Under the pieces are notes generated by a model. It saw only the letters and a program-made list of their open reading frames with translations. It had not been told where the DNA came from and did no database searches. Position numbers and translations under genes: made by a program. From Chloroflexota bacterium (GTDB lineage: Bacteria; Chloroflexota; Limnocylindria; Limnocylindrales; Limnocylindraceae): a DNA stretch of 34,586 bases. Shown here in pieces: positions 12,433-28,323 of this stretch. The DNA is taken from the NCBI GenBank assembly GCA_041180765.1, contig JBEGQU010000039.1, positions 1 to 34,586 on the forward strand, read 5' to 3'. Each line of letters starts with the position of its first letter. The stretch's first letter is position 1.

Positions 12433-13869
12433 CTAGGGGGCGATGGCGCGGACGACCGCCTCGATCCAGGGGGTCGGGGCGAGTCCGAGGGCGACCGTGC
12501 CGACCGCGGCCAAGAGCAGCCCGGCCCGGAGCAGGGGTGGCGTCGCGACCTCCGGTCCCGGCGAGGCCGGCTCCCGCATGAACAGGTAGACGATCACCCG
12601 CAGGTAGTAGAAGGCGGCCACGGCGGCGTTGAGCACCGCGACGATCGCGAGGAGCGCCACCCAGCCGCCCGCCTGCACCGCGGCGAGGATGACGTAGGTC
12701 TTGGCGAAGAAGCCGGCGGTCGGCGGGATGCCGATGAGGCTGAGCAGGAAGACCGAGGCGAGCAGGGCGAGGCCGGGGTGGCGGCGACCGAGCCCCGAGA
12801 GGTCGGAGAGCTGCGTCGTCGCGCCCGCGGCCCCCTGGATCGCGGTGAGCACCGCGAAGGCGCCGAGGTTCATGAACGCATAGGCGGCGGCGTAGAAGAG
12901 GATCCCCGAAATGCCTGCCCGTTCGCCGGCGCCCGCGGCGACGAGGCCGACCATCAGGTATCCGGTATGGGCGATCGACGAGTAGGCGAGCATGCGCTTC
13001 AGGTTCGACTGCGTCAGCGCGACCAGGTTGCCGAGGGTCATCGTCGCCGCGGCGAGCAGGGCGATGACCGGCATCCACGTCGCCGCGAGCGGGAGCAGCG
13101 CGACGAGGTAGAGCTTCGTCGCCAAGACGAACGCGCCGACCTTTGGTCCGACCGAGAGATAGCCCGTGATCGGCGTCGGAGAGCCCTGGTAGGCATCGGG
13201 TGTCCAGTAGTGGAACGGGACGGCGGCGATCTTGAAGGCGACGCCGGTGGTGATCATCGCCAGGGCGATCGCCAGCGCCGGCGTGCTGGCACCCGACGCG
13301 AATGCCGCTGCGATGCCGTCGAGCGACGCGGTCTTCGCGCTCCCCCAGAGCAGCACGATCCCGAAGAGCAGGATCGCGCTCGAGAAGCTGCCGAGCAGGA
13401 AGTACTTCACCGCCCCCTCGGTGCTCAGGCTGTCGCGCTTGGCGAACCCCGCGAGCAGGTAGCCGGGGATGACCATCAGCTCGAGGCCGATGAAGAGCGT
13501 CACGAGGTCCGCGGCGGCGGCCACGAGGATCGCGCCGGAGAGGGCGACCAGGATCGTCGCCGCGAACTCGGCGCTCGGGTAGCGCCGCAGGGCGAGGTGG
13601 TCGGGCGCCACGAGCAGCGTGATGGAGAGGATCGACGCGCCGAGGAGGCCGAGGTAGGCGACAAATGGCCCGGCGACGAAGGCCCCGCCGAGCGCAGAGG
13701 CGTTCGCACCGCCCTGCTGCAACAGCAGGGCGGAGGCGCCGCCCAGCGCCGCGAGCGCCAGCGCGACCGGCGCGTAGCGACGACCCGGCGTGATCATGTC
13801 GCTGACGAGCACGAGCATCGCGCCGCCGAGGACGACGAGCAGCGGGGCGATCGCCGTCAACTCGCTCAC
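12433..13869 (-). CDS. nuoN: NADH-quinone oxidoreductase subunit N
   Basis: EGAVKYFLLG, FKIAAVPFHYWTPDAYQGSPTP, KRMLAYSSIAH. Confidence 0.95.
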   Translation of the reverse strand: MSELTAIAPLLVVLGGAMLVLVSDMITPGRRYAPVALALAALGGASALLLQQGGANASALGGAFVAGPFVAYLGLLGASILSITLLVAPDHLALRRYPSAEFAATILVALSGAILVAAAADLVTLFIGLELMVIPGYLLAGFAKRDSLSTEGAVKYFLLGSFSSAILLFGIVLLWGSAKTASLDGIAAAFASGASTPALAIALAMITTGVAFKIAAVPFHYWTPDAYQGSPTPITGYLSVGPKVGAFVLATKLYLVALLPLAATWMPVIALLAAATMTLGNLVALTQSNLKRMLAYSSIAHTGYLMVGLVAAGAGERAGISGILFYAAAYAFMNLGAFAVLTAIQGAAGATTQLSDLSGLGRRHPGLALLASVFLLSLIGIPPTAGFFAKTYVILAAVQAGGWVALLAIVAVLNAAVAAFYYLRVIVYLFMREPASPGPEVATPPLLRAGLLLAAVGTVALGLAPTPWIEAVVRAIAP

Positions 13870-15386
13870 GGCTGTACCCCGCTCGCGGCGTAGAGGAGGA
13901 AGGTGCCGACGCTCTGCGCGAACGACGAGGTGAGGATCGACGGCAGCACGCCGAAGGTGACGATCATCGCGGCGAGCGGTGCGAGCGTGAGGATCTCGGT
14001 CGGCGTCACGTCGGTGAGGTGCGTCCCGAGGCCGTCGAGGAACGGCGAGAGGGGGCCGGTGAAGACGCGCTGGTACATCCAGAGCAGGTAGACGGCACCG
14101 AGCACCATGACGATCGCCGCCGCTCCGGCCACCATCGGGCTGGCGAGGAACGCGCCGAGCAGCACCAGGAACTCGCCCGCGAAGCCCGAGAGGCCCGGGA
14201 GGCCGACCGAGGCGAAGAGGAAGAAGCCGAAGAGCGCCGCGTAGACCGGCGTGCGCGCGGCCCAGCCGCCCATCTTCGCGATCTCGCGATCGTGCGTGCG
14301 CTCGTAGCCGATCCCGACCAGCAGGAAGAGGCCGCTCGTGATCAGGCCGTGGTTCAGCATCTGCAGGATGGCGCCGTCGACGCCCTGCTGGTTGAACGAG
14401 AAGATGCCGAGGGTGACGAAGCCCATGTGGCTCACCGAGCTATAGGCGATGAGCTTCTTCAGGTCGGTCTGCACGATCGCCACGAGCGCGCCGTAGATGA
14501 TCGCCACGACCGAGAGGGCGACCATGATCGGGGCGAAGGCCTGGGCGCCGTACGGGAAGAGCGGCACGGCGAAGCGGATGAAGCCGTAGCCGCCGAGCTT
14601 GAGGAGCACCCCGGCGAGGATCACGGAGCCCGCGGTAGGGGCCTGCACGTGTGCGTCGGGGAGCCAGGTGTGGAACGGGAACATCGGCACCTTGATCGCG
14701 AATGCCAGGGCGAAGGCGCCGAAGGCGAGCACCTGCAGGGTGGGGTCGCCCACGCTGCCGCGCAGGGCGAGGAGGTCGAACGCCCCCTCCCACGACCCCG
14801 TCGCCGCCTGGTGGGCGAACGCGGTGGCGAGGATCGCCACGAGCATCAGCAGCGAGCCGACGAGCGTGTAGAGGACGAACTTGATCGTGGCGTAGATGCG
14901 GTCGGCGCCGCCCCAGATGCCGATGATCAGGTACATCGGCACCAGGACGACCTCCCAGAAGATGTAGAAGAGGAAGAGGTCGAGCGCCAGGAAGACCCCG
15001 AGCATCCCCGTCTCGAGGATCAGGAAGCTGACGAAATACTCCTTGACGCGCGCCTGGATCGGCCCGAACGAGGCGAGGATGCAGATCCAGCTCAGCAGCG
15101 TGGTCAGGACGACGAGCGACCCCGACAGCCCGTCGACGCCCAGGTGGTAGGTGATCCCGAACGCCGGGATCCAGCTCGCCTGCTCGACGTAGGCGAACTC
15201 GGCACCCGTGCTGCCGAGCCCGGCGAGCCCCGGCAGCATCAGCAGGCTGAGGGCGAACGTCGCGAGCGAGACGCCGAGGGCGGCGGCGCGGATCACCCCG
15301 GGTCGCGACGACGGGAGGAGCGAGACGGCGAGCGCACCGGCGAGCGGCAGGAAGATGAGCAGCGAGAGCACCGGCAGGCCGCTCAT
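13866..15386 (-). CDS. nuoM: NADH-quinone oxidoreductase subunit M
   Basis: FYIFWEVVLVPMY, KVPMFPFHTWLPDAHVQAPT, LLKLGGYG. ATGA overlap with the nuoL stop. Confidence 0.95.
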   Translation of the reverse strand: MSGLPVLSLLIFLPLAGALAVSLLPSSRPGVIRAAALGVSLATFALSLLMLPGLAGLGSTGAEFAYVEQASWIPAFGITYHLGVDGLSGSLVVLTTLLSWICILASFGPIQARVKEYFVSFLILETGMLGVFLALDLFLFYIFWEVVLVPMYLIIGIWGGADRIYATIKFVLYTLVGSLLMLVAILATAFAHQAATGSWEGAFDLLALRGSVGDPTLQVLAFGAFALAFAIKVPMFPFHTWLPDAHVQAPTAGSVILAGVLLKLGGYGFIRFAVPLFPYGAQAFAPIMVALSVVAIIYGALVAIVQTDLKKLIAYSSVSHMGFVTLGIFSFNQQGVDGAILQMLNHGLITSGLFLLVGIGYERTHDREIAKMGGWAARTPVYAALFGFFLFASVGLPGLSGFAGEFLVLLGAFLASPMVAGAAAIVMVLGAVYLLWMYQRVFTGPLSPFLDGLGTHLTDVTPTEILTLAPLAAMIVTFGVLPSILTSSFAQSVGTFLLYAASGVQP

Positions 15387-17332
15387 CGCGCGGTCACCAG
15401 GAAGATCGTCGCCATCGCGATGAGGCCGACGGCGATGCCGAGCGCGTAGTTCTGCACGCGCCCGGTCTGGATCTGGCGCAGGCCACGACCCGACCCAGAG
15501 GCGAGCGCGCCGACGCCGTTCACCGCACCGTCGACGACGCGACGGTCGAACCACCAGAGGGCGCTCGCCAGGCGTCCGCCGAAGCGCACGAAGACGAGAT
15601 CGTTCAGGTCGTCGAAGAACCAGCGGCCGCGGCTGCCGCGATAGAGCGGCGCCAGGCGCGCGGTCACGCGCCCGAGCAGCTCCGCGTGGTCGCTGCGGAA
15701 GAGGCGCACGCCGATCGCCGTGCCGATCGCGGCGACGGTGACGCTCGCGAGCATCAGCAGGCCGTCGATGCCGAAGAGCGCCCAGGCCTCGTGCTCGTGG
15801 CCGAGCGCCGCGCTCGCGGCGTGGAAGACCGGCTCGAGGCCGTGGACCAGCAACCCGTCGGCGAAGGGGTAGCCGAGCAGGAAGCCGATGGCGATCGACG
15901 GAACGGCGAGCACGACGAGCGGCAGGGTCATCGTCCACGGCGACTCGTGCACGTGGACCCCCTCGGGAACGCGACTCTTCCCCCAGAAGGTCATCCCCAT
16001 CAGGCGGAACATGTAGAAGGCGGTCATCCCGGCGACGATCATCCCGACGAGCCAGACCCAGGCGAAGCCGAACTTGAACGCCTCGCCGAGGATCTCGTCC
16101 TTCGACCAGAAGCCGGCCAGCGGCGGAAGTCCGGCGATCGCCACGGTGCCGACGAGCATCGTCGCGTAGGTGAGCGGGATCTTCGGTGCGAGGCCGCCCA
16201 TCTTCGGCATCTCCTGCTCCCCCTCTACCGCGTGGATCACCGATCCCGAGCCGAGGAAGAGGAGCCCCTTGAAGAAACCGTGGGTGATGAGGTGGAAGAT
16301 CGCGGGGACCCAGGCACCCACGCCGAGCGCCGCGAACATGTAGCCGAGCTGCGAGAGGGTCGAGAAGGCGAGGACGCGCTTGATGTCGGTCTGCGTGAAG
16401 GCGATCGACGCGGCGAAGATCGCGGTGAAGATGCCGATCGCGGCGACGACGAGCATCGCCTCATGGCTCGCGGCGAAGAGCGGACTCATGCGCGCCACGA
16501 GGTAGACGCCGGCGTTGACCATCGTCGCGGCGTGGATGAGCGCCGACACCGGGGTGGGGCCCTCCATGGCGTCGGGGAGCCAGACGTGCAGCGGGAACTG
16601 CGCCGACTTGCCGACCGCGCCGCAGAAGACGAGCAGCGCGATCACCGTCGCCGCCGGGCCGGCGAGGGCGCCGCCCTCGATCCCGGCGAGGATCGTCGGG
16701 ATGTCGAGGGTGCCGAAGACGGCGACCAGCCCCATCAGCCCGAGCGCGAAGCCGACGTCGCCGACACGGTTGGTGATGAACGCCTTCTTGGCGGCGAGGC
16801 CCGGCGCGCGCTTCGTGTACCAGAAGCCGATGAGCAGGTACGACGAGAGGCCGACGAGCTCCCAGGCGGCGAAGATGACGAGCAGGTTGTCGGCGAGGAC
16901 CAGGAGGAGCATCGAGAACATGAAGAGGTTCAGGTAGGCGAAGAAGCGCCAGTAGGAGTCGTCGTGGGCCATATACCCCACGCTGTACAGGTGCACCAGC
17001 GCGCCGACGGTGGTGACCACGAGCAGGAGTGCCCCGGTGAGGGCATCGACGTGGAGGCCGAGGTCGAAGCGCAGGTCGCCCGAGGCGATCCAGCTAAAGA
17101 GCGGCAGGGAGGCGCCCCCCTCCCCGAGCCCGCCCGTGAGGGCGGGGAGGGCGAGGCTCATGGCGATCAGCCAAACGGCGGCGATCGCGACCAGCGGGAC
17201 CAGGTGGGCCCGCTTCCCGAGGCGCCGGCCGACGGCGGCCGTGAACGCGAAGCCGGCGAGCGGCAGGGCGAGGAGCAGCGGGGCGTAGCCCGGGAGGAGC
17301 CCGATCTGCACCCCCTCGGCCATGGGCATCAT
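15383..17332 (-). CDS. nuoL: NADH-quinone oxidoreductase subunit L
   Basis: WELVGLSSYLLIGFW, GKSAQFPLHVWLPDAMEGPTPVSALIHAATMV, C-terminal QTGRVQNY. Confidence 0.95.
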   Translation of the reverse strand: MMPMAEGVQIGLLPGYAPLLLALPLAGFAFTAAVGRRLGKRAHLVPLVAIAAVWLIAMSLALPALTGGLGEGGASLPLFSWIASGDLRFDLGLHVDALTGALLLVVTTVGALVHLYSVGYMAHDDSYWRFFAYLNLFMFSMLLLVLADNLLVIFAAWELVGLSSYLLIGFWYTKRAPGLAAKKAFITNRVGDVGFALGLMGLVAVFGTLDIPTILAGIEGGALAGPAATVIALLVFCGAVGKSAQFPLHVWLPDAMEGPTPVSALIHAATMVNAGVYLVARMSPLFAASHEAMLVVAAIGIFTAIFAASIAFTQTDIKRVLAFSTLSQLGYMFAALGVGAWVPAIFHLITHGFFKGLLFLGSGSVIHAVEGEQEMPKMGGLAPKIPLTYATMLVGTVAIAGLPPLAGFWSKDEILGEAFKFGFAWVWLVGMIVAGMTAFYMFRLMGMTFWGKSRVPEGVHVHESPWTMTLPLVVLAVPSIAIGFLLGYPFADGLLVHGLEPVFHAASAALGHEHEAWALFGIDGLLMLASVTVAAIGTAIGVRLFRSDHAELLGRVTARLAPLYRGSRGRWFFDDLNDLVFVRFGGRLASALWWFDRRVVDGAVNGVGALASGSGRGLRQIQTGRVQNYALGIAVGLIAMATIFLVTAR

Positions 17333-17649
17333 TGGCGCATCGTGTCGTACTCGTCGACCAGCGGGGTCTTCCGGTTGCGATAGATCGCGATGACGATCGC
17401 AAGGCCGACGGTCGCCTCCGCGGCGGCCACCGCGATGACGAGCAGGGCGAACGAGGCTCCCTCGCCGGCGAGTTCCGGGACGAAGGCGCCGAAGGCGATG
17501 GCGGCGAGGTTCACCGCGTTGAGCATCAGCTCGACGCTCATGAGCATGCTGATGGCGTTGCGGCGGGCGAGGAAGCCGAACGCGCCGATGGAGAAGAGCA
17601 GGCCGGAGAGCACCAGATACGGCTCGAGGTGCCCGGCGATGAGGCTCAC
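17329..17649 (-). CDS. nuoK: NADH-quinone oxidoreductase subunit K
   Basis: RRNAISMLMSVELMLNAVN and AAAEATVGLAI. GTG start overlaps the nuoJ stop. Confidence 0.95.
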   Translation of the reverse strand: MSLIAGHLEPYLVLSGLLFSIGAFGFLARRNAISMLMSVELMLNAVNLAAIAFGAFVPELAGEGASFALLVIAVAAAEATVGLAIVIAIYRNRKTPLVDEYDTMRQ

Positions 17650-18200
17650 TCCCCCTCCTCCTCGCGATCGGCGACCTTCGCCGCAAGGTAGATCCCGCCG
17701 ATCACGGCGGCGAGGATCAGCGCGCTCGCCGCCTCGAAGGCGAGGAGCCAGGGACCGAAGAGCGTCGCCGCGACCCCCGAGGTGCCGCCGGCGGCCGGCG
17801 TATCGGCGAAGACGGTTGCGCCCCAGGGCGTGCTGCCGAGGGCGATCGCAAAGAGCGCGCCAAGCAGCAGCGCCGCGAGCGCCGCGGGGAGCGCCTGGGT
17901 CTGGAAGGTGAGCTGCGCCGGGGCCGCCTTCGACTGGGTCAGCATGATCGCGAAGAGGATCAGCACGCTGATCGCACCGATGTAGACGAGCACCTGCGCG
18001 CCGGCGACGATCGCCGCGCCGAGGATCACGTAGATCCCCGCGAGGGCACCGAACGAGAGGATGAGGAAGAGCCCGTTGCGGATGATGTCGCGACCGAGGA
18101 CGACGAGCGTCGCTGCGCCGAGGACGACGCCCCCGAGGAGCAGGAAGAGCGCGTCGGCCCATGTCAGGCCGATGAACGGGATCGTCGGCGGAAGCGGCAT
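17646..18200 (-). CDS. nuoJ: NADH-quinone oxidoreductase subunit J
   Basis: QVLVYIGAISVLILFAIML and FEAASALILAA. Confidence 0.93.
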   Translation of the reverse strand: MPLPPTIPFIGLTWADALFLLLGGVVLGAATLVVLGRDIIRNGLFLILSFGALAGIYVILGAAIVAGAQVLVYIGAISVLILFAIMLTQSKAAPAQLTFQTQALPAALAALLLGALFAIALGSTPWGATVFADTPAAGGTSGVAATLFGPWLLAFEAASALILAAVIGGIYLAAKVADREEEGE

Positions 18201-18202
18201 GG

Positions 18203-20770
18203 TCAGCGCCCGCGGAGGCTGGAGGGGAGCACCGGCAGGTCTCGCGACGGATCGCGGCGGCGCCCCGCGACGGTGTTCTCCCAGTTGGACTCGCCGCGGA
18301 TGAAGGTTGCCTCCGAGGTGCGCTCGATCTTGGCGAGGGCGATGAGGTCGATCATCGGCTCACTGCGGTCGGTGTGCGCCAGCTCGAAGTCGAAGCCGCT
18401 GCGCAGCGCGTCGTAGGGGCAGGCGTCGACGCAGATCCCGCAGAGGATGCAGCGCGACTCGTCGACTTCGTACTTCGTGAGGATACGCGGCTTCGGCATC
18501 AGCGCGCCGGTCGGGCAGGTCTCGGCGCAGCGACCGCACGAGACGCAGGGCGACTCGTTGAGGCTCATGTCAAGCGGCGTCGTCACGAGCGTGTCGAAGC
18601 CGCTGCGCATGAAGTCGTAGCAGGCGGCACCGACGACCTCGGCGCAGACGTTCGCGCAGCGGCCGCAGTCGATGCAGCGCGACGGCTCGCGCAGGATGAA
18701 GGCGTGCGAGTCGTCGCGCACGTAGTCGTGGTTCGCGCCGGTCCAGCGGTTCTCCGTGATCGAGCGGAACCCCGCGCCCCCGCGATGCTCCTTCTCGAGC
18801 GTCTTCAGCGTGGTGCCGTACTCGATGCCGAGGCGCCGCAGGTCGCAGAAGCCGATCGCCTCGCAGGTGCACTGCAGGCAGCGCGTGCTCTCGGCCATCG
18901 CCTCGGGCTTGCTGTACGGGATCTCGTACTGGATGTAGTCGTTGCGGCGCTCCTCCGCCGGCAGGGCGCGGAGGCGGAGGCGCGGCTCCTTCACCTCTCC
19001 GGTGAACGGCACGATGCTGAGGAACTCCGGCTGCGGCTCGGCCAGCGTCTGGCGGTTGCGGATCTCGGTCAGGTCGAGCCCCTTGAGGTAGGCGTCGACG
19101 GCGTAGGCGCAGCGCCGCCCGTCGGCGATCGAGGCGACGACCGTCGTCGCGCCGTTGCGCAGGTCGCCGGCGCCGAAGACCCCGTCGCGTCCGGTCTGGA
19201 AGGTCACCGCGTCGGCCTTCAGGCGACCGTTCTTCGTCGCGGTGACGCCCTCTGCCCCGACGCTCGCCCAGGTCATGTCGGGTCCCTGCCCGATCGCCTT
19301 GAGGATGCGGTCGCACTCGATGATGAACTCCGTGCCCGGTGCGGGCTCCGGGCGGCGGCGGCCGGAGGCGTCGGGGGCGCCGAGCTGCATGCGCACGAAC
19401 TCGAGGCCCTTCACCCGGTTGTCGGCGTCGACGATCACGCGGGTCGGACCGGCCTGGAAGATCGCCCGGGCGCCCTCCTCGATCATCTCGTGCACCTCGT
19501 CGGCGGCGGGCATGTCCTTCATGTCGCGGCGGTAGACGAGGGTGACCTCCTTCGCCCCCTGGCGGACGCTCGTGCGGGCGCAGTCCATCGAGGTGTAGCC
19601 GCCGCCGACCACGACGACGCGGCTGCCGGCGTGGTCCGGGTAGGTGAGCCCGAGCGCGGCGGTGTGCAGGTAGTCGAGCCCGTCGATGACCCCCTCCGCC
19701 TCCTCGCCGGGGATGCCGAGGTCGTTCGTGTCGTAGCAGCCGATCGCCACCACGACGGCGTCGTAGCCCTGCGCGCGCAGGTCGGCGACGGTGAAGTCGC
19801 GGCCGAGCATCTTGCCGCACTCGAAGCGGCCGCCGAGGCGCGTGATCGACTGGTACTCGCCGTCGAGCACCTCGATCTTCGGCAGCCGGTACTGCGGGAT
19901 CCCATAGCGCAGCATGCCGCCCGGCTCGGGATCCTTCTCGAAGATCGTCACATCGTGCCCGGCGATGAGCAGGTAGTAGGCGGCCGAGGCGCCCGAGGGG
20001 CCGGAGCCGATCACGGCGACGCGCTTGCCGCTCTTCGGCTGCAGCTCGAACGGCACCGGCGGATCGATGTCGTCGTCCCACATCGCCTTCAGCACCTGGT
20101 CGCCCGCATAGCGGTGGCTATCGCGGATCGCGATCGCTTCGTCGACCTCGTCGCGGCGGCAGTGGTCTTCGCAGGGTGCGGGGCAGACGCGGCCGAGCAC
20201 GCTCGGGAACGGGATCGTGCGCTTGAAGATGCGCGCCGACTCGCGGAACTCCGATTCCGCGTTCGCCTTGAGGAAGCCGGGGATGTCGATGTGGCTGGGG
20301 CACTTGTTCTGGCACGGCGGCAGGCAGTAGGCGTTGTGGTCGCTGAAGATCAGCTCGAGGTTGGTCTTGCGGATCTCGCGCAGCCGGTCGGTCTGCGTCG
20401 CGATGACCTGGGCCGGCGCGGCCTTGGCGGAGCAGCTGATCTGCGGCTGGTCGCAGCCCTCGACGTCGACGACGCACATGCGACAGGCGCCGAAGCCGGG
20501 GAGCTTCGGGTCGTAGCAGAGGGTCGGGACCTCGATCCCGTTGGCGCGACAGACCTCGAGGATCGTCTGCCCCTCGAAGGCGTCGAGCCGGCGCCCGTCG
20601 ATCTCGACGGTGAAGGTGGGGGTGCGCTGCGGTCGCTGCGGGCTGCGCGTCGAGAGGAGGCGCTCGACGGCGATCTCGTCCGGCACGTGCGAGGGAGCGA
20701 GCGGCGAACGGGTCGAGCCGTGCGCCGCGGGGGCGATCTCGTTCGTCGGTCGGTCGATCAGGTCGGCCAT
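18203..20770 (-). CDS. 855-aa fusion replacing NuoG: NuoG/HydA-type [2Fe-2S] + GltD/NfnB-like FAD/NADPH oxidoreductase + 2x[4Fe-4S] + C-terminal half of NuoI
   Basis: PTLCY..GACRMCVV..ISC; CLPPCQNKCP and GRVCPAPCEDHC; GSGPSG; GGGYTSMDCAR..VYRR; RCIDCGRCANVC and CVSCGRCAETCPTGAL; terminal YEVDESRCILCGICVDACPYDAL...DFELA..R. Confidence 0.88.
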   Translation of the reverse strand: MADLIDRPTNEIAPAAHGSTRSPLAPSHVPDEIAVERLLSTRSPQRPQRTPTFTVEIDGRRLDAFEGQTILEVCRANGIEVPTLCYDPKLPGFGACRMCVVDVEGCDQPQISCSAKAAPAQVIATQTDRLREIRKTNLELIFSDHNAYCLPPCQNKCPSHIDIPGFLKANAESEFRESARIFKRTIPFPSVLGRVCPAPCEDHCRRDEVDEAIAIRDSHRYAGDQVLKAMWDDDIDPPVPFELQPKSGKRVAVIGSGPSGASAAYYLLIAGHDVTIFEKDPEPGGMLRYGIPQYRLPKIEVLDGEYQSITRLGGRFECGKMLGRDFTVADLRAQGYDAVVVAIGCYDTNDLGIPGEEAEGVIDGLDYLHTAALGLTYPDHAGSRVVVVGGGYTSMDCARTSVRQGAKEVTLVYRRDMKDMPAADEVHEMIEEGARAIFQAGPTRVIVDADNRVKGLEFVRMQLGAPDASGRRRPEPAPGTEFIIECDRILKAIGQGPDMTWASVGAEGVTATKNGRLKADAVTFQTGRDGVFGAGDLRNGATTVVASIADGRRCAYAVDAYLKGLDLTEIRNRQTLAEPQPEFLSIVPFTGEVKEPRLRLRALPAEERRNDYIQYEIPYSKPEAMAESTRCLQCTCEAIGFCDLRRLGIEYGTTLKTLEKEHRGGAGFRSITENRWTGANHDYVRDDSHAFILREPSRCIDCGRCANVCAEVVGAACYDFMRSGFDTLVTTPLDMSLNESPCVSCGRCAETCPTGALMPKPRILTKYEVDESRCILCGICVDACPYDALRSGFDFELAHTDRSEPMIDLIALAKIERTSEATFIRGESNWENTVAGRRRDPSRDLPVLPSSLRGR

Positions 20771-20772: not shown

Positions 20773-22020
20773 TCAGCTCCGTCCGTTCGCGGTGGTCGAG
20801 GCGGCGGGGAGGAATTCCCGCTCGAAGTATCGCATCCCCGTGATCAACGGGCGGGGGGCGAGGCGCTCGTGGTCGCAGAGTGCGCTGTCGGCCACGTCCG
20901 CGGCGAGCGCCTGCAACCGCTGCGCGTCGGCCGGTCCGGCGAGGCCGTCGACGAAGCGCTGGCCGATCTCGGCGAGGCGGCGCGTGCCGATGCGGCACGG
21001 GATCGTCTTGCCGCACGCCTCGTCCGCGCACCAGCGCGTCACCAGCGCGGCAAGCTCGGGAATGTCGGCGGCGGCGTCGAGCACGAGGATCGCCCCCGAG
21101 CCGATGTGCGCGCCGACCGCATCGAGTCCGGCACCGCTGTAGGGCGTTGCCGCGAGCAGGCTCGCCGGCACGAAGCCGCCCGTCGGCCCGCCGACGAGGA
21201 GCGCCTTCGGTTGTGCGCCGCCCGCCGTGCCGCCGGCGGCGGCGATGATATCGGCGAGCGTCGTCCCCGTCGGCACCTCGAGGACCCCCGCGCGGGCGAC
21301 CGCACCGGCCAGCTGCACGAGCGCCGTGCCGGGCTGGGCGGGATCGCCGATCTGCGCGAACGCACCGGCACCGTCGTTGAGGATCCAGGTGGCTGCGGCG
21401 AGCGTCGCCACGTTGTTCACCGCGGTCGGCCTGCCGAGATACCCGCTCGTCGCCGGGTACGGCGGAGTCTGCTCCGGCTGGCCGCGCTTGCCGGCGAGCG
21501 CCTTCAGCAGGACCGTCTCCTCGCCGATCATGCTCGACCCCTGGAGCGGGCGGATGGCGATCGACACCTCGCGACCGGAACCGGCGGCATCGCCGCCGAG
21601 CGCACCGTCGCGCTCGCCGGCGTCGATCACCCCCTGGAGCGCGCGGATGGCGTCGACGTATTCGGCGCGGACCACGATGAACGCCTCGCGCGCGCCGACG
21701 CTCAGGGCCGCGATGGCGAGCCCCTCGACGACCGCCTGGGGGTTCTGCTCCATCAGGAGGCGATTCGAGAAGACCGCCGGGTCGGACTCGTAGCCGTGGG
21801 CCACGGCGTAGCGGGTCGCCGCGCCGGTCGCCGCCACCGCGCGCCACTTGTCGGCGGTGGGGAACCCCGCGCCGCCGCGGCCGCGGAGGCCCGCCTGCTC
21901 GAGCGCGGCGATCGTGCCGACCGGGCCGAGGGCGACGGCGGCGCGCAGGGCGGCCCATGGGGCGGCGGGGGACGTGAGGAGCGGCTGCGCCCAGCCCTTC
22001 GGGGCGTCCAGGCGCCTCAT
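20773..22020 (-). CDS. nuoF: NuoF/HydB-like flavoprotein subunit, degenerate
   Basis: GLRGRGGAGFPT..KW, GEET.LL..L.GKRGQP and PTAVNNVATL. N3 motif altered to EACGKTIPCRIG...LCDH. Confidence 0.8.
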   Translation of the reverse strand: MRRLDAPKGWAQPLLTSPAAPWAALRAAVALGPVGTIAALEQAGLRGRGGAGFPTADKWRAVAATGAATRYAVAHGYESDPAVFSNRLLMEQNPQAVVEGLAIAALSVGAREAFIVVRAEYVDAIRALQGVIDAGERDGALGGDAAGSGREVSIAIRPLQGSSMIGEETVLLKALAGKRGQPEQTPPYPATSGYLGRPTAVNNVATLAAATWILNDGAGAFAQIGDPAQPGTALVQLAGAVARAGVLEVPTGTTLADIIAAAGGTAGGAQPKALLVGGPTGGFVPASLLAATPYSGAGLDAVGAHIGSGAILVLDAAADIPELAALVTRWCADEACGKTIPCRIGTRRLAEIGQRFVDGLAGPADAQRLQALAADVADSALCDHERLAPRPLITGMRYFEREFLPAASTTANGRS

Positions 22021-22838
22021 GCGGCGTACCTCCCCGCCAGGGCGGCAGCCCAGGTCTCGGCGTTCTTCGCCGTCAGTTCGCGCTGCGGCTCGCCGTCGAT
22101 GACCACGAGCGGCGAGGGGGCATCGGGCAGGTGGGTGGAGAGCGCCTCGAGGCGGAGATTGCTGCGGGGGATCGCCCGCCCGAACTCCGTGCCGAACTCG
22201 TAGGAGAGGGTGCGCACGACCCGCCCGCCCCCCGCCGCGAGGCAGGCGGCGCAACGGCAGACGGCGATCGAGCGGGTGCGCCCGGGCTCGAAGGCGAGGT
22301 GGCGGTAGAAGGTCGCGGTGCCATAGACCATGGCGTACCAGGCGCCGGTGGCGCGGCTCACGCGCTTGAGCGCATCGACCGGCAGGTAGCCATAGTGCGC
22401 CTGGATCGCCTCGAGGATCGGCAGCATCGCGTGCGGGTCATAGTCGTGCCGCTCGAGGATCGCCTCGACCGGCACGGGGTCGATGCTGCTCCCCTGCGCC
22501 GCCGCGGCATCGGAGACGGCGCGGCCGGAGCGGCGCATCGCCGACTCCTCGCGCCGCTCGGCATACTGCTCGGCGGGCCCCCAGTGCACGGCGTAGCGCC
22601 CCTTGGTGTCGGTGCCGCCCATGTCGATGCACTCGATCGGACAGGCCTGGGCACACTGGAAGCACGTCTCGCACTTCAGGGTCCCGTGCTCGTCGGTGAC
22701 GAGCTCCAGGCGGCCGCGGTTGCGCGGCGGGATATCCGGCTTGGCCTCCGGGTACATCACCGTGCGCTTCGGCTGGAAGAAGCGCGTCAGCGTGAGAGCC
22801 ATCCCCCGCACGATCCCCGAGCCCGGAATCCGCGCCAT
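22017..22838 (-). CDS. Fusion of NuoI N-terminal half and a degenerate NuoE-like domain
   Basis: GMALTL..FF....TVMYPE......RNRGR...KCETCFQCAQACPIECI (only one ferredoxin motif), then LPILEAIQAHYGYLP..VYGTATFY..IAVCRCAAC. Confidence 0.85.
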   Translation of the reverse strand: MARIPGSGIVRGMALTLTRFFQPKRTVMYPEAKPDIPPRNRGRLELVTDEHGTLKCETCFQCAQACPIECIDMGGTDTKGRYAVHWGPAEQYAERREESAMRRSGRAVSDAAAAQGSSIDPVPVEAILERHDYDPHAMLPILEAIQAHYGYLPVDALKRVSRATGAWYAMVYGTATFYRHLAFEPGRTRSIAVCRCAACLAAGGGRVVRTLSYEFGTEFGRAIPRSNLRLEALSTHLPDAPSPLVVIDGEPQRELTAKNAETWAAALAGRYAA

Positions 22839-22848
22839 CTCCCCTCCC

Positions 22849-24186
22849 CTATGCCGTCAGCAGGACCGCGAGCGCGGTCGCGAAGATGTTGAGCAACGAC
22901 GCGGGGAGCAACCACTTCCAGGCGAAGCCCATCAGCTGGTCGATGCGCGCACGCGGCAGGGTTCCGCGCATCCAGACGAAGACGAAGACGAGGGTGAACG
23001 TCTTGGCGAGGAACCAGACGAGGTTCGCCAGCGCCGGGAGCATCGCCCAGGCCCAGAACCCGACGGCGGCGGTCGAGAGGGCGCCGAAGACCAGGAAGCC
23101 GGCGACGAGCGCCTGCCAGGTCTTCACGCGGCGGCCGACGAGGAGGAACGGCGCCGCGCAGACGAGCGTGCCGACCACAGGGGCGAGGCCGACGATCAGC
23201 GGCAGGCCGATGCCGAGGGCGCTGAGGTCGACCTCGATCTGCGGATGGAACGGCAGGACCAGCGGCGCGTTCGACCCGCCGAGGAAGACCGCCGAGAAGA
23301 GCGCCGAGACGATGAAGACGTTCACGTACTCGGCGAAGAAGAAGAAGCCGAAGCGCATCCCCGAGTACTCGGTGGCGAACCCGGCGACGATCTCCTGGTC
23401 GGCCTCGGTGTTGTCGAAGGGGGTGCGGTTCGCCTCGGCGGTGATGGCGATGAAGAAGATGATCGCGGCGAGCGGCTGGCGGAAGATGAACCAGTCGAGG
23501 ATCGAGCCGGCCTGCGCCTCCACGATCTTCGGCAGCGAGAGGGTTCCCGTGAGGATGACGATCCCCACGATCGAGAGCGTCAGCGGGATCTCGTAGCTGA
23601 TCGACTGCGCCGCCGCGCGGATGCCGCCGAGCAGCGAGTACTTGTTGAACGACGACCAGCCGGCCATCATCAGGCCGACGACGCCGAGCCCGCCGATGGC
23701 GAAGAAGTAGAGCAGCCCGAACTCGAGGCCGACGCTGGTGAGCTCCGGCGCGAACGGGATGACCATGATCGTCATGAAGCTCGCGAGGTAGACGACGACC
23801 GGCGCGAGCGTGAAGACCGGCTTGTCGACGCTCGGCGGCGTGTAGTCCTCCTTCATCAGCACCTTGAGGCCGTGCACGATGCTCATCACCGCGCCGGCCG
23901 GTCCGATGCGATCGGGACCGATGCGCAGGTTCATGAGGGCGATGATCTTCATCTCCATGTAGATCAGCAGGAAGGCGGTGGGGACGGTGATGAGGAAGGT
24001 GATCACCGACGCCGCGAGGAAGCGCACGATCGGCAGATTGGCGCCGATGGTGGCGGCGATCGCGCCGCCGAACGCGACGAGCAGCGCCGTCGTGAGCGCC
24101 CCGCCGACGGCGAGCACCGGGAGGGCCACGGCGACGATCCGCCCGATGGGCGTGAGGCGCCCCCAGACCAGTGCGGCGCCGCTCAC
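22849..24186 (-). CDS. nuoH: NADH-quinone oxidoreductase subunit H (elongated, extra hydrophobic segments)
   Basis: RIGPDRIGP.G, KYSLLGGIRAAAQSISYE, AEANRTPFD..EA..E...GF.TEYSG, RGTLPRARIDQLM. Confidence 0.95.
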   Translation of the reverse strand: MSGAALVWGRLTPIGRIVAVALPVLAVGGALTTALLVAFGGAIAATIGANLPIVRFLAASVITFLITVPTAFLLIYMEMKIIALMNLRIGPDRIGPAGAVMSIVHGLKVLMKEDYTPPSVDKPVFTLAPVVVYLASFMTIMVIPFAPELTSVGLEFGLLYFFAIGGLGVVGLMMAGWSSFNKYSLLGGIRAAAQSISYEIPLTLSIVGIVILTGTLSLPKIVEAQAGSILDWFIFRQPLAAIIFFIAITAEANRTPFDNTEADQEIVAGFATEYSGMRFGFFFFAEYVNVFIVSALFSAVFLGGSNAPLVLPFHPQIEVDLSALGIGLPLIVGLAPVVGTLVCAAPFLLVGRRVKTWQALVAGFLVFGALSTAAVGFWAWAMLPALANLVWFLAKTFTLVFVFVWMRGTLPRARIDQLMGFAWKWLLPASLLNIFATALAVLLTA

Positions 24187-25397
24187 TTGTCGACCCCGCC
24201 CATCACCGGATCGAGGCTCGCCATGACCGCCATCGTGTCGGCGATCAGGTTCCCCTTCGTGAGCGGCCCGACGAGCTGCAGGTGCACGAACGACGGGTCG
24301 TGGATGCGCATGCGGAACGGCTGGTCGGTGCCGTCGCTGATCGCATAGGTGCCGTACACGCCGCGCGGACCCTCGACGGCGCCGAACGCACGACCGGGTC
24401 GCGGCCGGATGAGGCGCGGCAGCTTGGCCGCCACCGGCCCGTCGGGCATCTCGTGGAGCACCTGGTCGATGATGCGCAGCGACTGCTTGATCTCGTCGAT
24501 GCGCACGAGGTAGCGGGCGAGGGAGTCGCCCTCGGTTCGGGTCGGGACGTCGAACTCGAGCTCGGGGTAGACGAGGTAGGGGCGGTCGCGGCGCAGGTCG
24601 TAGGGGACCCCCGTCGCGCGGAGGTTCGGCCCGGTGACGCCCATGCGCAGGGCGGTCTTCGCGTCGAGCACCCCGAGGCCGCGGGTGCGGCGCACGAAGA
24701 GCTCGTTCTCGTTGATCAGCCCGAGGTTCGAGTCGATCTGGGCGGCGGCGCGACCCATCCAGGTGCCGAGGCGGCTCATGAACTCATGGTTCAGGTCGCC
24801 GTTCACGCCGCCGATGCGGTAGTAGTTGTAGAGGAGCTTCTGGCCGGTGAGTGCAGCGAGCATGTCGACGATCTCGTCGCGCTCGATGAACGACCAGAGG
24901 ATCGGCGTGAGGCCGCCGAGATCGAGCGCCATCCAGCCCTGGAAGAGCGTGTGGCTGGCGATGCGATTGAGCTCCATGGTGAGCACGCGGATGTACTGCG
25001 CGCGGCGCGGTACCTCCACGTCCATGAGCTTCTCGAAGGCGGCGACCGGTGCCGCCTCGCAGAAGAGCGAGCTGACGTACTCGAGCGGATCGGTGTAGCA
25101 GATCGCCTGGTGGTAGTCGGCGTTCTCGCAGAGCTTCTCGACGCCGCGGTGCAGGTAGCCGAGGACCGGATCGAGGTCGACGACCTTCTCGCCGTCGATC
25201 TTGATGACGACGCGCAGCACGCCGTGCGTCGACGGGTGCTGCGGCCCCATGTTCACGAACATCTCGCCGTCCTTAAGCGAGAGGAACTCCGCCTGGCGCT
25301 CCGTCTGCGGCGTCGGTGCCGGCTCGTACCACGCCGATCCGGCCGGGATCGCGACGCGCGGATCGTCGAGCGAGGGGCGGGTCTGCTGCTGCGTCAT
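24183..25397 (-). CDS. nuoD: NADH-quinone oxidoreductase subunit D
   Basis: NMGPQHPSTHGVLR, GYLHRGVEK, ELNRIASH, EGPRG, C-terminal SLDPVMGGVDK. No NiFe CxxC ligands. Confidence 0.95.
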   Translation of the reverse strand: MTQQQTRPSLDDPRVAIPAGSAWYEPAPTPQTERQAEFLSLKDGEMFVNMGPQHPSTHGVLRVVIKIDGEKVVDLDPVLGYLHRGVEKLCENADYHQAICYTDPLEYVSSLFCEAAPVAAFEKLMDVEVPRRAQYIRVLTMELNRIASHTLFQGWMALDLGGLTPILWSFIERDEIVDMLAALTGQKLLYNYYRIGGVNGDLNHEFMSRLGTWMGRAAAQIDSNLGLINENELFVRRTRGLGVLDAKTALRMGVTGPNLRATGVPYDLRRDRPYLVYPELEFDVPTRTEGDSLARYLVRIDEIKQSLRIIDQVLHEMPDGPVAAKLPRLIRPRPGRAFGAVEGPRGVYGTYAISDGTDQPFRMRIHDPSFVHLQLVGPLTKGNLIADTMAVMASLDPVMGGVDK

Positions 25398-25951
25398 CGC
25401 GATGCACCCGGGCTCTTGCGCACGAGCGTCGCAGCGGTGGCGTCGCGGGGCGTGCCGGCGCGCTCCATGTTGCGAACGCCGGCGGCAGGCGATCGCGAGG
25501 CATCGTCGGCCAGGTGGAAGTCCTTGCGCAGCGGGTGGCTGCGGTAATCGTCGGGCATGTAGATCCGCCGCAGGTCGCGGTTCCCCTCGAAGACGATGCC
25601 GAACATGTCGTACGCCTCGCGCTCCATCCACTCCGCGCCAGGCCAGAGCGAGGTCGCGGACGGCGCGCGGGGCGAGGTGCGGTCGAGCCCCGGCACGATG
25701 AGGCGCAGCCAGTCGCCGCTCTGCGCCGAGGAGAGGTGATAGACGACCTGCATCTCCTCGCCGGTGTCGACGCCACAGAGGTCGATGAGCATCTCGAAGG
25801 CGAGCGACGGTTCGTCGTGGAGCGCGCGCAGCGTGTCGACGGCGTCGGCGAGCGCGACGCGGATCTCGGTCTCGTCGTGGCGCTGGCGGACCGGCCCGAG
25901 CAACCGCTCGCCGAAGCGCGCGGTGAGCCGGGAGGCGAGGGCGCGGTCCAT
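25394..25951 (-). CDS. nuoC: NADH-quinone oxidoreductase subunit C
   Basis: LIDLCGVD, W.EREAYDMFGI.FEG..DLRRI, HPLRKDF. Confidence 0.93.
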   Translation of the reverse strand: MDRALASRLTARFGERLLGPVRQRHDETEIRVALADAVDTLRALHDEPSLAFEMLIDLCGVDTGEEMQVVYHLSSAQSGDWLRLIVPGLDRTSPRAPSATSLWPGAEWMEREAYDMFGIVFEGNRDLRRIYMPDDYRSHPLRKDFHLADDASRSPAAGVRNMERAGTPRDATAATLVRKSPGASR

Positions 25952-28289: not shown

Positions 28290-28323
28290 GCGGTAGATCC
28301 TACGCGGCGGTAGTGTCGTGCAC
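28290..28323. promoter_or_regulatory. Compact divergent leaderless promoter pair (midA-like / folK)
   Basis: Minus strand TAGGAT-ctaccgc-ATG(28289); plus strand TAGTGT-cgtgcac-ATG(28324). Confidence 0.55.

Follow-up and report, generated by a model that had tools for sequence, protein, structure and literature searches.

A candidate variant of complex I in Chloroflexota with a StnC/NfnA-like subunit in the NuoG position and a NuoI divided between two polypeptides

Introduction

Complex I is normally tied to NADH, and its known variants use ferredoxin or F420. In the Stn/NfnABC (Bfu) transhydrogenases, a GltD unit is docked on a His-ligated cluster whose counterpart in canonical complex I, N5, forms the exit towards NuoI. 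These transhydrogenases bind NADPH at a GGG...YRR site (PMC10482914, sections 7-8; PMC11829005), and their hallmarks include a B subunit with extra cluster domains (B2-B5) and a C subunit with a [2Fe-2S] cluster, C1, beside the FMN (PMC9304861, PMC12018979). StnC also carries an FdhF-like domain that, according to section 8 of PMC10482914, mediates tetramer formation and is required for assembly.

A related module has been proposed as part of a membrane complex. In the ‘Nuo-Bfu’ complex I predicted for Geobacter and others, as outlined by Schut et al. (2022, PMC9304861), a full bifurcating BfuABC (NADH plus ferredoxin) without a GltD/NADPH unit replaces NuoEFG in a 14-subunit proton-pumping complex. 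In the Mbx-like operons of Thermotoga and proteobacteria, a gltD-related flavoprotein is described as taking the place of NuoI in a ferredoxin-oxidising complex of the Mrp/Mbx type (Degli Esposti 2015, PMC4758237).

Here we analyse a window of 34,586 nucleotides (contig JBEGQU010000039.1, Chloroflexota, Limnocylindraceae) in which a nuo operon encodes a protein, hereafter X, combining NuoG-like and GltD-like parts. On balance, the operon probably encodes a variant proton-pumping membrane complex I in which X is the large electron-input subunit and a split NuoI joins the input module to the quinone module. The architecture is well supported by sequence comparison, and from it we infer cofactor occupancy, the use of NADPH versus NADH, how electrons reach NuoI and which way they flow. 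Our search of the literature found no published description of an X-type complex I with a split NuoI.

Results

A nuo operon with a displaced input module

As in the canonical 14-subunit complex I of Thermus thermophilus (Nqo) and Escherichia coli (Nuo), the genes for NuoA, B, C, D, H, J, K, L, M and N were all found in one operon (Pfam, NCBIfam), located here on the minus strand, to which all coordinates below refer. It comprises nuoA (26646-27002; Oxidored_q4, E 2.5e-31), nuoB (25951-26655; Oxidored_q6 and alignment to PSST/Nqo6 chains), nuoC (25394-26182, ORF limits approximate; Complex1_30kDa, E 1.2e-39), nuoD (24183-25631, a long ORF with uncertain true start; Complex1_49kDa and NuoD models), nuoH (22849-24186; Pfam NADHdh, E 3.9e-100, and NCBIfam NuoH), nuoJ (17646-18200; Oxidored_q3 and NuoJ models), which begins 3 bases past the X stop codon, and nuoK, nuoL, nuoM and nuoN (12433-17640; ORFs 17329-17640, 15383-17686, 13866-15938 and 12433-13869, starts approximate; Oxidored_q2, Proton_antipo_N and Proton_antipo_M). 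Both the N2 ligands and the site motifs of canonical NuoD are kept. NuoB has all four N2 cysteines (CC...C...CP), with PGCPP among the segments aligned to PSST/Nqo6 motifs, and NuoD retains THGVLR, LHRGVEK and CYTDPLEY, the first and last of which align to the 49-kDa motifs containing the quinone-site His of the beta1-beta2 loop and the Tyr, residues that we take to be quinone binders. The quinone module looks functional.

The genes of the presumed input module are a fusion of a NuoI half with a NuoE-like domain (I_N::E'), a NuoF-like gene (F') and X; they lie between nuoH and nuoJ, whereas their canonical counterparts lie between nuoD and nuoH. The order nuoA-B-C-D-H-[I_N::E']-F'-X-J-K-L-M-N was found in all 80 related loci as far as each contig reaches, 63 of which have all 13 operon genes. 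X occupies the NuoG position, as originally predicted, and neither a canonical NuoG nor a second NuoD or NuoF was found in the genome carrying the window (85.7% complete).

Protein X, a shortened homologue of StnC/NfnA

The X reading frame extends from an ATG at 20770 to a stop codon at 18203-18205 (feature 18203-20770) and encodes 855 amino acids; although the frame remains open upstream to 21958, overlapping the F' gene, comparison with homologues showed that they share this start Met. Its translation, Pfam and NCBIfam matches, PDB matches and AF2 model all describe a StnC/NfnA-like protein. Like canonical NuoG, X has [2Fe-2S], His-cluster and ferredoxin-domain motifs. The N-terminal [2Fe-2S] domain (aa 52-127, 20390-20617; Pfam Fer2_4, E 8.9e-17) contains Cys85, 96, 99 and 113, kept in 36/36 X-type rows. 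Only the first 17 positions of the Pfam model for the NuoG His-cluster match thereafter (aa 134-150), and a GltD-type insert occupies aa 145-565 (19076-20338), with Fer4_20 at aa 149-228 and Pyr_redox_2 at aa 250-551, as also delimited by alignment to NfnA/StnC and by column counts. All hallmarks of GltD/NfnB-type flavoproteins are present in it: two [4Fe-4S] sites, the FAD-binding GxGxxG (GSGPSG), and a second Rossmann motif GGGxxxxD followed by YRR after beta-2 (the NAD(P)H site, GGGYTSMD...YRR). The motifs CLPPCQNKCP, GRVCPAPCE, GSGPSG and GGGYTSMDCAR...YRR, on which the original prediction was built, were each recovered in the translation.

NuoG-like sequence returns at aa 594-760 (18491-18991), with RCLQCTC...C ligands and then a 2x[4Fe-4S] ferredoxin-like domain (CIDCGRCANVC, CVSCGRCAETCP), identified by Fer4_Nqo3 (aa 692-757), a Pfam dicluster domain (aa 735-790), alignment to StnC 625-680 and NuoG model positions 119-214. 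The ‘EA.RCL.C’ element had been placed C-terminal to the flavin domains, where it indeed lies, reading PEAMAESTRCLQCTC. A 2x[4Fe-4S] domain had likewise been expected after the flavin unit and does follow it, but there are three CxxCxxCxxxC(P) motifs rather than two, the last of them (aa 774-785) being part of the second NuoI half. The NuoG model itself matched positions 1-129 (71.9 bits) and 119-214 (21.4 bits), against a cut-off of 470. In contrast with canonical NuoG, and in agreement with the prediction, the best 25 of 27 matches in the Pfam scan of X included no molybdopterin-fold or H-cluster family.

The cluster ligands of the returning part are kept in 36/36 X-type rows, as are G255, G257, G260, G389, G391 and the Cys ligands of the GltD unit. 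Given that the architecture and every cluster ligand are conserved in all 36 aligned X-type sequences, this arrangement is, on comparative grounds, not a chance occurrence. A YRR motif is expected to bind the 2'-phosphate and to favour NADPH. The combined GxGxxG and GGG...YRR signature was counted in 33/36 X-type and 36/36 Stn-type rows; in one X-type lineage (P0145) the nucleotide site is degenerate, with GDGF and SPC replacing GGG and YRR.

The closest solved structures were 9bov_A (E 1.3e-166), 8oh5_C (E 5.2e-143) and 9n5u_A (E 1.3e-136), and the AF2 model of X (mean pLDDT 78.5) gave a Foldseek TMq of 0.73 against both 9bov_A and 8oh5_C (Caldicellulosiruptor saccharolyticus NfnA and Sporomusa ovata StnC). 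These matches bear out the notion of a NuoG-GltD chimera. Across the three structures (8oh5, 9bov, 9n5u), identity to X was 36-40% and TMq 0.71-0.73, with the FAD and GGG...YRR motifs in common and, over ~700 residues, the same order of parts: [2Fe-2S], GltD unit inside the His-cluster motif, 2x[4Fe-4S] ferredoxin domain. NuoE-type and NuoF-type partner genes accompany X as they do its relatives. X is, by these comparisons, a shortened homologue of StnC/NfnA, which is the subunit that binds NADPH in the Stn/NfnABC transhydrogenases. It differs from them in belonging to a nuo operon and in having half of NuoI in place of the FdhF-like C-terminal domain, so that 103 residues extend from the ferredoxin-domain CP motif to its end, compared with mostly 300-570 in Stn-type rows (142-260 in a few short ones). 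It also differs in the non-Cys ligand of the FAD-proximal cluster, which is His in X-type (36/36; His219 of X) and Lys in Stn-type rows (35/36). In a quick-search tree (LG+G4) of 49 rows, comprising 13 of the 36 X-type and 36 Stn-type rows, all X-type rows fell on one side of a single branch (SH-aLRT 99), suggesting a single origin.

A NuoI split between two polypeptides

Searching with a NuoI model, we did not find an intact NuoI in the operon or in the rest of the 85.7% complete genome. Unlike the single chain of canonical complex I, NuoI is present here as two halves in the genes flanking F', matching TIGR01971 positions 1-66 (22605-22805) and 71-117 (18347-18487). The first half, composed of an amphipathic N-terminal helix and CETCFQCAQACP, opens the I_N::E' fusion (273 aa, 22017-22838), in which it is followed by a linker and the NuoE-like domain (NCBIfam NuoI at aa 9-81, NuoE/HoxE at aa 123-264; PDB alignments); its C56, C59, C62, C66 and P67 are invariant in 42/42 rows. 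The second half forms aa 762-808 of X (CILCGICVDACP...FDFELA), as also indicated by alignments to PDB NuoI/TYKY chains, and its motif is kept in 36/36 X-type rows. A spacer of only 11 residues separates the ferredoxin-domain CP motif of X from the NuoI-type strand KYEVDESRC. An assembly artefact or a frameshift as the origin of the split was ruled out by its identical occurrence in 80/80 loci and in distant families. The split provides what we regard as the strongest sequence argument for X being a physical part of complex I.

In AF2 models, aa 115-270 of I_N::E' were confident, whereas aa 35-114, and the second NuoI half modelled alone, had pLDDT <50, a low confidence expected for isolated halves and no evidence for their pairing. 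When X 680-835 was co-folded with I_N::E' 1-110 and four 4Fe-4S clusters, the predicted contact between the halves scored 0.33 (best control 0.00), a weakly supportive outcome that carries no weight in our argument, as halves of a known fold may also pass because the predictor is familiar with that fold. The partner chain had a pLDDT of 47 or more, and 73% or more of the contacts recurred between runs. In the benchmark, 58 of 80 solved complexes and 2 of 110 mismatches reached the mark, only 7 of those 80 being at or below 0.60.

Two described membrane complexes close to this arrangement differ from it. The passages of PMC9304861 on ‘Nuo-Bfu’, which shares the proposed replacement of NuoEFG by a Bfu-type ABC module, mention no split NuoI. 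The Mbx-like operons, as presented in PMC4758237, also set a GltD-type NAD(P)-binding flavoprotein on a complex-I-family membrane module, at the position of NuoI, whereas here both NuoI halves are kept, with a full Nuo-type quinone reductase and NuoE/F-like partners.

The NuoF-like and NuoE-like partners

F' (415 aa, 20773-22020; Pfam Complex1_51K, SLBB and NADH_4Fe-4S) is NuoF-like and closest to the core of NfnB/StnB/HydB (PDB 9bov_B, E 9.5e-86); its start codon (ATG) overlaps with the stop of the I_N::E' gene upstream. Its alignment to the 584-aa NfnB is confined to residues 133-510 of the latter, and it has none of the cluster domains (B2-B5) found at both termini of Bfu B subunits. The motifs GRGGAGFPT, GEET and PPYP are kept in F' and, across 76 rows, the GRGGAGFPT loop, K58, GEET and PP(Y/H)P are nearly invariant. 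Residues matching the NADH contacts of C. saccharolyticus NfnB, given as G156, F159, K164, E274 and F294 in PMC11829005, are mostly kept in the same rows. However, the Asp of the NAD(E) motif next to the FMN is Tyr in 76/76 rows, the glycine-rich GAGAY loop is altered, and one N3/B1 cysteine, the second, is Thr in F' and Thr, Ser or Ala (63, 12 and 1; n=76 rows) across the window's class. Because of the Asp replacement and the lost cysteine, the FMN branch may be impaired in this class; all four N3 cysteines are present in F' of distant lineages. F' is probably still active.

In E', the second N1a Cys pair is replaced by Thr and Asp (alignment to HydC), and the N1a site of canonical complex I and the [2Fe-2S] cluster of the Stn/NfnABC C partner are accordingly lost; the thioredoxin-like part of the NuoE-like domain is absent in 45/78 related loci. 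Since F' lacks the extra cluster domains and E' the C1 ligands, the elements identified as the site of bifurcation are absent, and this, together with the loss of the thioredoxin-like part, suggests a non-bifurcating enzyme. It would thereby differ from ‘Nuo-Bfu’ as described in PMC9304861, lacking the bifurcation-specific domains and having an NADPH-type flavoprotein.

Distribution among Chloroflexota

X-type proteins were found in 84 of 401 sampled Chloroflexota genomes. In more distant members of the phylum, nuoB-[I_N::E']-F'-X forms a cassette, and one genome (G111) has a separate nuoA-C-D-H cluster missing exactly nuoB and nuoI. We ruled out that the distant four-gene cassettes encode a Hox-like hydrogenase: a large-subunit gene is not beside them, and the G111 cluster lacks just the subunits that the cassette supplies. 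Cultured Ktedonobacteria (according to source names) have the cassette as a second complex I, and genomes with a canonical complex I retain it as a second enzyme. Among the X-type lineages that keep the FAD and NAD(P)H motifs and the ligands, identity is only 44-47%.

In Limnocylindria, the X-bearing complex I is the only complex I found. The genome carrying the window (85.7% complete) yielded no NDH-2 with Pfam NDH2_C, which detects one in only 3/14 control genomes, or with an E. coli Ndh query that had no positive control. Even with both NDH-2 tests being weak, a sole complex I and no NDH-2 found imply that the enzyme must probably handle NADH. The same genome has a gene for the PntB transhydrogenase, so a second link to NADPH is not obviously needed.

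Discussion

A possible electron path and its alternatives

The stripped, non-bifurcating Stn/NfnABC-type module composed of E', F' and X would replace NuoEFG, with E' devoid of a [2Fe-2S] cluster, F' reduced to the FMN/NADH core and X combining the N-terminal clusters of NuoG with the inserted GltD flavoprotein. The split NuoI would tie this module covalently to the quinone module, its first half being the N-terminus of E' and its second the C-terminus of X, and the two polypeptides would join to place clusters N6a and N6b beside NuoB. Electrons from NADPH would enter the FAD of the GltD unit, move along the two [4Fe-4S] clusters of this unit to the His-ligated and ferredoxin-like clusters of X, and continue through the reassembled NuoI clusters and N2 to quinone, driving the NuoL/M/N/H pumps. 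Because in Stn/NfnABC the His-ligated cluster, the canonical exit (N5), is where the GltD unit sits, the route from X to NuoI must differ from the canonical one. NADH would probably enter in parallel at F', its electrons passing from the FMN via the N3-like cluster to the [2Fe-2S] of X. Electron exchange between both nucleotide pools may be possible along the same chain, as may running in reverse.

Such a two-site enzyme fits better than the use of NADPH instead of NADH, as F' keeps most NADH-contact residues. Tentatively, and with rather less confidence than in the variant complex I itself, we propose a third kind of nucleotide-linked complex I, with two wired sites (FMN/NADH and FAD/NADPH) and a two-polypeptide NuoI ferredoxin, capable of NADPH respiration, built-in transhydrogenation and, in reverse, NADPH synthesis at the expense of quinol and proton-motive force. 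Limnocylindria, which are abundant in freshwater, would have no other complex I, and in Ktedonobacteria it would be a second one.

An enzyme fed by NADPH only, in which F' and E' are structural remnants, all electrons pass through the GltD FAD and NADH is supplied indirectly, for example by PntAB, would account for the lost cluster of E', the Tyr beside the FMN in 76/76 rows, the altered GAGAY loop and the lost N3 cysteine of the window's class; pntB is present, and retention of the cassette beside a canonical complex I suggests a different substrate. However, the NADH/FMN contacts of F' (GRGGAGFPT, K58, GEET, PP(Y/H)P) are nearly invariant and the four N3 cysteines persist in distant lineages, a conservation unexpected at a dead site, and proton-motive force would be spent if all NADH passed through PntAB. 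We regard this reading as unlikely. The opposite one, an ordinary NADH:quinone complex I in which the GltD unit survives as a structural or regulatory relic, or else uses NADH, and NADPH has no role, seems similarly doubtful. It agrees with the need for the sole complex I found in Limnocylindria to carry respiratory NADH oxidation where NDH-2 was not found, and the degenerate site of P0145 indicates that the nucleotide site is dispensable at least there; yet YRR, common to the NADPH-dependent Stn/NfnABC proteins, is kept in 33/36 and the GltD cluster ligands in 36/36 X-type rows, across lineages at 44-47% identity.

Complex I is reversible, and some Ktedonobacteria live on trace gases, with electrons entering at the quinone level. 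The reverse direction might therefore be the physiological one, quinol and proton-motive force reducing NADP+ (and NAD+) for biosynthesis, in line with the occurrence of the cassette as a second complex I in cultured Ktedonobacteria and with the Lys to His change at the FAD-adjacent cluster (36/36 X-type rows), which suggests a retuned potential. The direction of flow is told by no sequence feature, however, and the window's lineage has a small genome with the X-type enzyme as its sole complex I, plus PntB, which makes this a distinctly improbable account. Lastly, a soluble Stn-like transhydrogenase or oxidoreductase located in the nuo operon and unattached to the membrane complex, although the nearest solved relatives are soluble, is very hard to reconcile with both NuoI halves lying within its polypeptides and no other NuoI found, with nuoB travelling with the cassette next to a matching nuoA-C-D-H cluster without nuoB and nuoI, and with X lacking the FdhF-like domain that StnC needs for assembly (PMC10482914, section 8).

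If the proposed two-site complex I is correct, a proton pump fed by NADPH or feeding it would alter the link between energy and biosynthetic reductant in a large and ecologically abundant phylum. The split NuoI would be a natural experiment on how an input module docks on a quinone module, and would illustrate the building of a 2x[4Fe-4S] ferredoxin fold from two chains. The presence of the cassette in Ktedonobacteria named as cultured in the sources opens the idea to direct testing. At present, X homologues are annotated as ‘FAD-dependent oxidoreductase’, ‘formate dehydrogenase major subunit’ or ‘hypothetical’, names with which metabolic reconstructions probably list this complex I as devoid of NuoG and NuoI.

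Expression and neighbouring genes

Contigs from four riverine RNA libraries match parts of X, F', I_N::E' and nuoH almost exactly, including 19203-19500 and 19540-19888 at 0 differences and 21968-22121, which spans the E'/F' junction; these contigs, which give neither strand nor level and might derive from DNA carry-over, are only a hint of expression of the four genes, and stretches that they leave uncovered carry no weight. Directly upstream of nuoA lies a gene of the Methyltransf_28 (NDUFAF7/MidA) family (27087-28439; Pfam E 3.4e-39), a possible assembly factor. A gene of the same family also adjoins the X homologue at another locus (L093).

A StnC/NfnA-type flavoprotein in the NuoG position

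The contig has a G+C content of 72% and belongs to a genome of 1.02 Mb (111 contigs, 85.7% complete). Such a very small size at this completeness, combined with ~72% G+C, is an unusual pairing for a streamlined freshwater bacterium. The region singled out in the original prediction corresponds to exactly one gene on the minus strand (ATG at 20770, stop at 18203–18205), which occupies the NuoG position of a nuo operon and encodes a protein of 855 aa, hereafter X. Pfam searches located in X a Fer2_4 [2Fe-2S] domain (aa 52–127), the first 17 model positions of the NuoG His-cluster motif (aa 134–150), a GltD/DPD-type Fer4_20 domain (aa 149–228), a Pyr_redox_2 flavin/nucleotide unit (aa 250–551), the NuoG (Nqo3) ferredoxin-like domain Fer4_Nqo3 (aa 692–757), and a dicluster domain (aa 735–790). 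All the motifs originally quoted were present in the translation and, as had been claimed, neither a molybdopterin-fold nor an H-cluster domain occurred among the best 25 of 27 Pfam families. The initial description of X thus held, except that the flavin unit is followed by three CxxCxxCxxxC(P) motifs, not two.

The best solved relative of X by sequence was the A subunit of NfnABC from C. saccharolyticus (9bov_A, E 1.3e-166), residues 5–700 of 1178 aligning to X 54–785; S. ovata StnC (8oh5_C, E 5.2e-143) and T. sibiricus NfnA (9n5u_A) were further close relatives. Plain GltD, NfnB/NfnL, and DPD structures covered only aa 150–565, and NuoG chains only aa 50–180. An AlphaFold2 model built from a 72-row alignment (mean pLDDT 78.5, pTM 0.69, confident over residues 50–760) gave Foldseek TMq values of 0.73 with 9bov_A (rmsd 3.1 over 717 columns), 0.73 with 8oh5_C, 0.71 with 9n5u_A, and about 0.45 with NfnL and GltD. 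On the basis of these sequence and structure matches, X is a StnC/NfnA-type chimera. PMC10482914 describes StnC as having a GltD unit inserted in the His-cluster motif of an N-terminal domain that resembles NuoG and HydA. The GltD unit of X likewise sits inside this motif of an N-terminal domain of the same kind, which accounts for the interrupted HxxxC motif that had been noticed at the outset. [quoted passage not shown]

A NuoI subunit split between two genes

A more striking feature than the GltD-type flavoprotein of the original prediction is the split of NuoI. On the minus strand, the operon runs from nuoA, B, C, D, and H through a gene for a 273-aa protein (22017–22838), the gene for a NuoF-like subunit, F' (20773–22020), and X to nuoJ, K, L, M, and N; Pfam and NCBIfam detected no intact nuoI in it. 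NCBIfam NuoI models matched aa 9–81 of the 273-aa protein and aa 762–808 of X. Searched against the whole genome (85.7% complete), the NuoI model retrieved no intact copy and only its positions 1–66 (22605–22805) and 71–117 (18347–18487), that is, two complementary pieces in two genes. The NuoI/TYKY chains in the PDB showed the same complementary alignment to each half. From all these matches, the 273-aa protein is a fusion of the N-terminal half of NuoI with a NuoE-like domain (I_N::E'). It starts with the N-terminal helix of NuoI and the first of its CxxCxxCxxxCP motifs, followed by a linker of ~45 residues and the NuoE-like domain (E'). In X, only 11 residues lie between the NuoI-type strand KYEVDESRC and the preceding CP of the ferredoxin-like domain. 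Because both motifs of a 2x[4Fe-4S] ferredoxin supply ligands to each [4Fe-4S] cluster, formation of N6a and N6b requires the X and I_N::E' polypeptides to associate. Modelled alone, X 763–855 and I_N::E' 35–114 both had pLDDT under 50, which is compatible with a split NuoI and is no evidence for it; likewise, a complex prediction of the two halves gave weak support and was not counted as evidence.

Behind its NuoI half, X carries a tail (aa 810–855, 18203–18343) ending in LPVLPSSL. This type of ending, LPVLP(S/A)S(L/I), is kept in both same-order homologues aligned (L021 and L022) and absent in the more distant lineages shown (L092–L096). One contig in each of the riverine RNA libraries X2 and X3 joined window position 21278 to 23082, skipping 1803 bases; the shorter side of the join measured just 25 letters at 90% likeness, and these contigs probably come from another organism or reflect a chance match.

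The partner subunits E' and F'

E' aligned with HydC, NfnC, and NuoE; in the alignment, Thr and Asp stand in for the second of the two Cys pairs at the [2Fe-2S] site. Among 78 related loci, the match ran into the thioredoxin-like part in 33 and ended ahead of it in 45 (L021, L023, L028, and others; also L093–L097), where this domain is gone and only the N-terminal helical part is left. In the alignments, 11 of the 17 rows shown lack it altogether, as do distant lineages.

F' (415 aa) is closest to NfnB, StnB, and HydB and aligned only to the NfnB-type core (residues 133–510 of 584), with no N- or C-terminal cluster domains in the alignment to NfnB-type proteins. The C1 cluster and the B2–B5 domains, named in the text of PMC9304861 and PMC12018979 as the bifurcating site and ferredoxin site of Bfu enzymes, are absent; therefore, the E'-F'-X module cannot be a Bfu-type bifurcating enzyme. 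The NADH contacts reported in the text of PMC11829005 for C. saccharolyticus NfnB (G156, F159, K164, E274, and F294) correspond to G50, F53, K58, E168, and Y188 of F'. In 76 rows (the window plus the 75 of 80 loci giving one long match), these columns held G in 74, F/Y in 72, K in 74, E in 74, and Y/H in 74. The position of the Asp next to FMN, mapped by offset to Asp-195 of T. sibiricus NfnB (PMC12018979), was Tyr in 76/76, and the second Cys of the N3/B1 cluster was replaced by Thr (63 rows), Ser (12), or Ala (1). More distant F' lineages keep all four Cys (CGKCxPC) and have the Tyr as well.

Conservation and distribution

At E ≤ 0.001, 5603 of 7995 scored candidates were relatives of X. The best 120 shared 74–96% identity, with 117 covering 96–100% of the query and three shorter ones 88–89%, under annotations such as 'FAD-dependent oxidoreductase' or 'formate dehydrogenase major subunit'. 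In species-representative genomes, 557 of 599 pattern matches encoded an X relative. The best 80 loci came from MAGs with labels such as Candidatus Limnocylindrus, Aquidulcis, Limnocylindrales, and Chloroflexota. Using the 13 window proteins as queries, we found the gene order held up to contig ends in all 80, with all 13 genes present in 63; apparent K/L and M/N swaps were artefacts of an overlapping nuoL query and paralogy.

Among 401 Chloroflexota genomes (six of them unpublished and counted in the denominator only), 105 had an X match at E ≤ 1e-100. In 84 it took in the NuoI-C part as well, reaching at least query residue 798 (X-type); it was cut by contig ends in 7, and was a Stn- or GltD-like match stopping earlier in 14. 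By Chloroflexota family, the holders were f1 (4/4 genomes), f2 (23/23), f3 (16/16), f4 (2/2), f9 (5/5), f24 (27/28), and f28 (11/11), plus genomes G129 and G211. Families f9, f28, f46, and f24 have these genes in a nuoB-[I_N::E']-F'-X cassette apart from the membrane-subunit genes. One genome, G111, has a separate nuoA-C-D-H cluster missing exactly nuoB and nuoI, and also a canonical NuoI beside another NuoH. Of five genomes checked for NuoI, G341 and G325, from the class of the window, had the split form only, and the other three had split and canonical forms. The X copy of G111 is identical to a protein recorded under Thermogemmatispora carboxidivorans, and the family is also present in the cultured Ktedonobacteria T. 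aurantia, Tengunoibacter tsumagoiensis, Ktedonobacter robiniae, and Dictyobacter species.

A quick LG+G4 tree (columns X 50–760, tail excluded; unrooted, n=49) included 13 of 36 X-type rows, after dropping 23 near-copies, and 36 Stn-type rows. All X-type rows lay together on the same side of one branch (SH-aLRT 99), a topology consistent with the NuoI fusion having arisen once. In family f8, NuoI-N-like matches (query aa 8–102) at G312:C2:327762–328037 and G232:C17:38474–38752 lie in open frames of 665–670 aa and may be NuoI fusions of a different type, in a separate Chloroflexota family.

The X-bearing operon encodes a real, conserved, and widespread complex I variant, testable in cultured bacteria; its architecture is well supported, and an NADPH-linked function is plausible. 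A full-text literature search, covering main texts, turned up no account of NuoI being split, nor of a Nuo operon in which a GltD-bearing protein stands in for NuoG; such Chloroflexota operons may be listed in the supplementary tables of PMC9304861 and PMC12361115. The nearest published ideas are the Nuo-Bfu complexes predicted in PMC9304861 and the Mbx-like operons of PMC4758237, where a gltD-related protein replaces NuoI; 'Chloroflex' is absent from the main text of the 2025 complex I variant survey (PMC12361115).

Cofactor sites and possible electron path

All Cys/His ligand columns of X, third (NuoI) motif included, were conserved in 36/36 X-type rows. At the non-Cys ligand position of the FAD-proximal cluster (X aa 219, about 20114–20116), X-type rows had His (36/36) and Stn-type rows Lys (35/36), a residue that matters for activity in Stn and NfnABC according to the text of PMC10482914 and PMC12018979. 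His219 cleanly marks the complex-I-linked clade and hints that the potential has been retuned. The GGG...YRR nucleotide site was complete in 36/36 Stn-type and 33/36 X-type rows, the exceptions being two YYR rows and P0145, a protein of 816 aa from the 50% representative library with the NuoI-C tail and a degenerate site (GDGF/SPC for GGG/YRR).

In NfnABC, electrons pass from NADPH to FAD, A7, A6, A3, A2, A1, B1, and FMN, as given in the text of PMC11829005. We read this path, from the FAD end, as the reverse of N3-N1b-N4-N5 of complex I, and the GltD unit as docking at the N5 site, where NuoI docks in complex I. X has the same cluster chain, with NuoI attached additionally. Its NuoI C-half comes straight after the second ferredoxin-domain motif, whose cluster in Stn starts a side branch called 'non-functional' in the text of PMC10482914. 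This placement leads us to propose that the side branch, or the His-ligated cluster, could feed reassembled N6a/N6b and, through them, N2 and quinone. Both NADPH at the FAD and NADH at the FMN would be linked to this route. The large C-terminal domain of NuoG normally helps keep the input module on the quinone module; its loss may be offset by the two covalent tethers of the split NuoI.

At the quinone end, NuoB has the N2 ligands (CC...C...CP), and NuoD has THGVLR, LHRGVEK, and the Tyr-containing segment CYTDPLEY, including residues that we take to bind quinone. The genome encodes one NuoD and one NuoF-like protein and, at 85.7% completeness, no NuoG other than X. A complex I oxidizing NADPH only is improbable, given the well conserved F', the presence of PntB, the status of this enzyme as the sole complex I found in the class of the window, and the failure of two queries, both weak tests, to find NDH-2 in the genome (85.7% complete). 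We regard an NADH-only enzyme as improbable to the same degree, and reverse operation as somewhat less likely still. A soluble enzyme is very hard to credit.

Directly upstream of nuoA lies a Methyltransf_28 (NDUFAF7/MidA-family) gene (27087–28439, minus strand), and the family also adjoins the X homologue of a distant genome (L093, 2862–4217, minus strand). Its product could be a methyltransferase for complex I assembly in bacteria; the arginine of LHRGVEK, kept in NuoD, is presumably the one methylated by NDUFAF7 in mitochondria. Elsewhere in the genome, a second GltD-like gene (G000:C55:20036–21568), 37% identical to X aa 118–636, lies within an open frame of 854 aa that also gave weak ferredoxin-motif matches.
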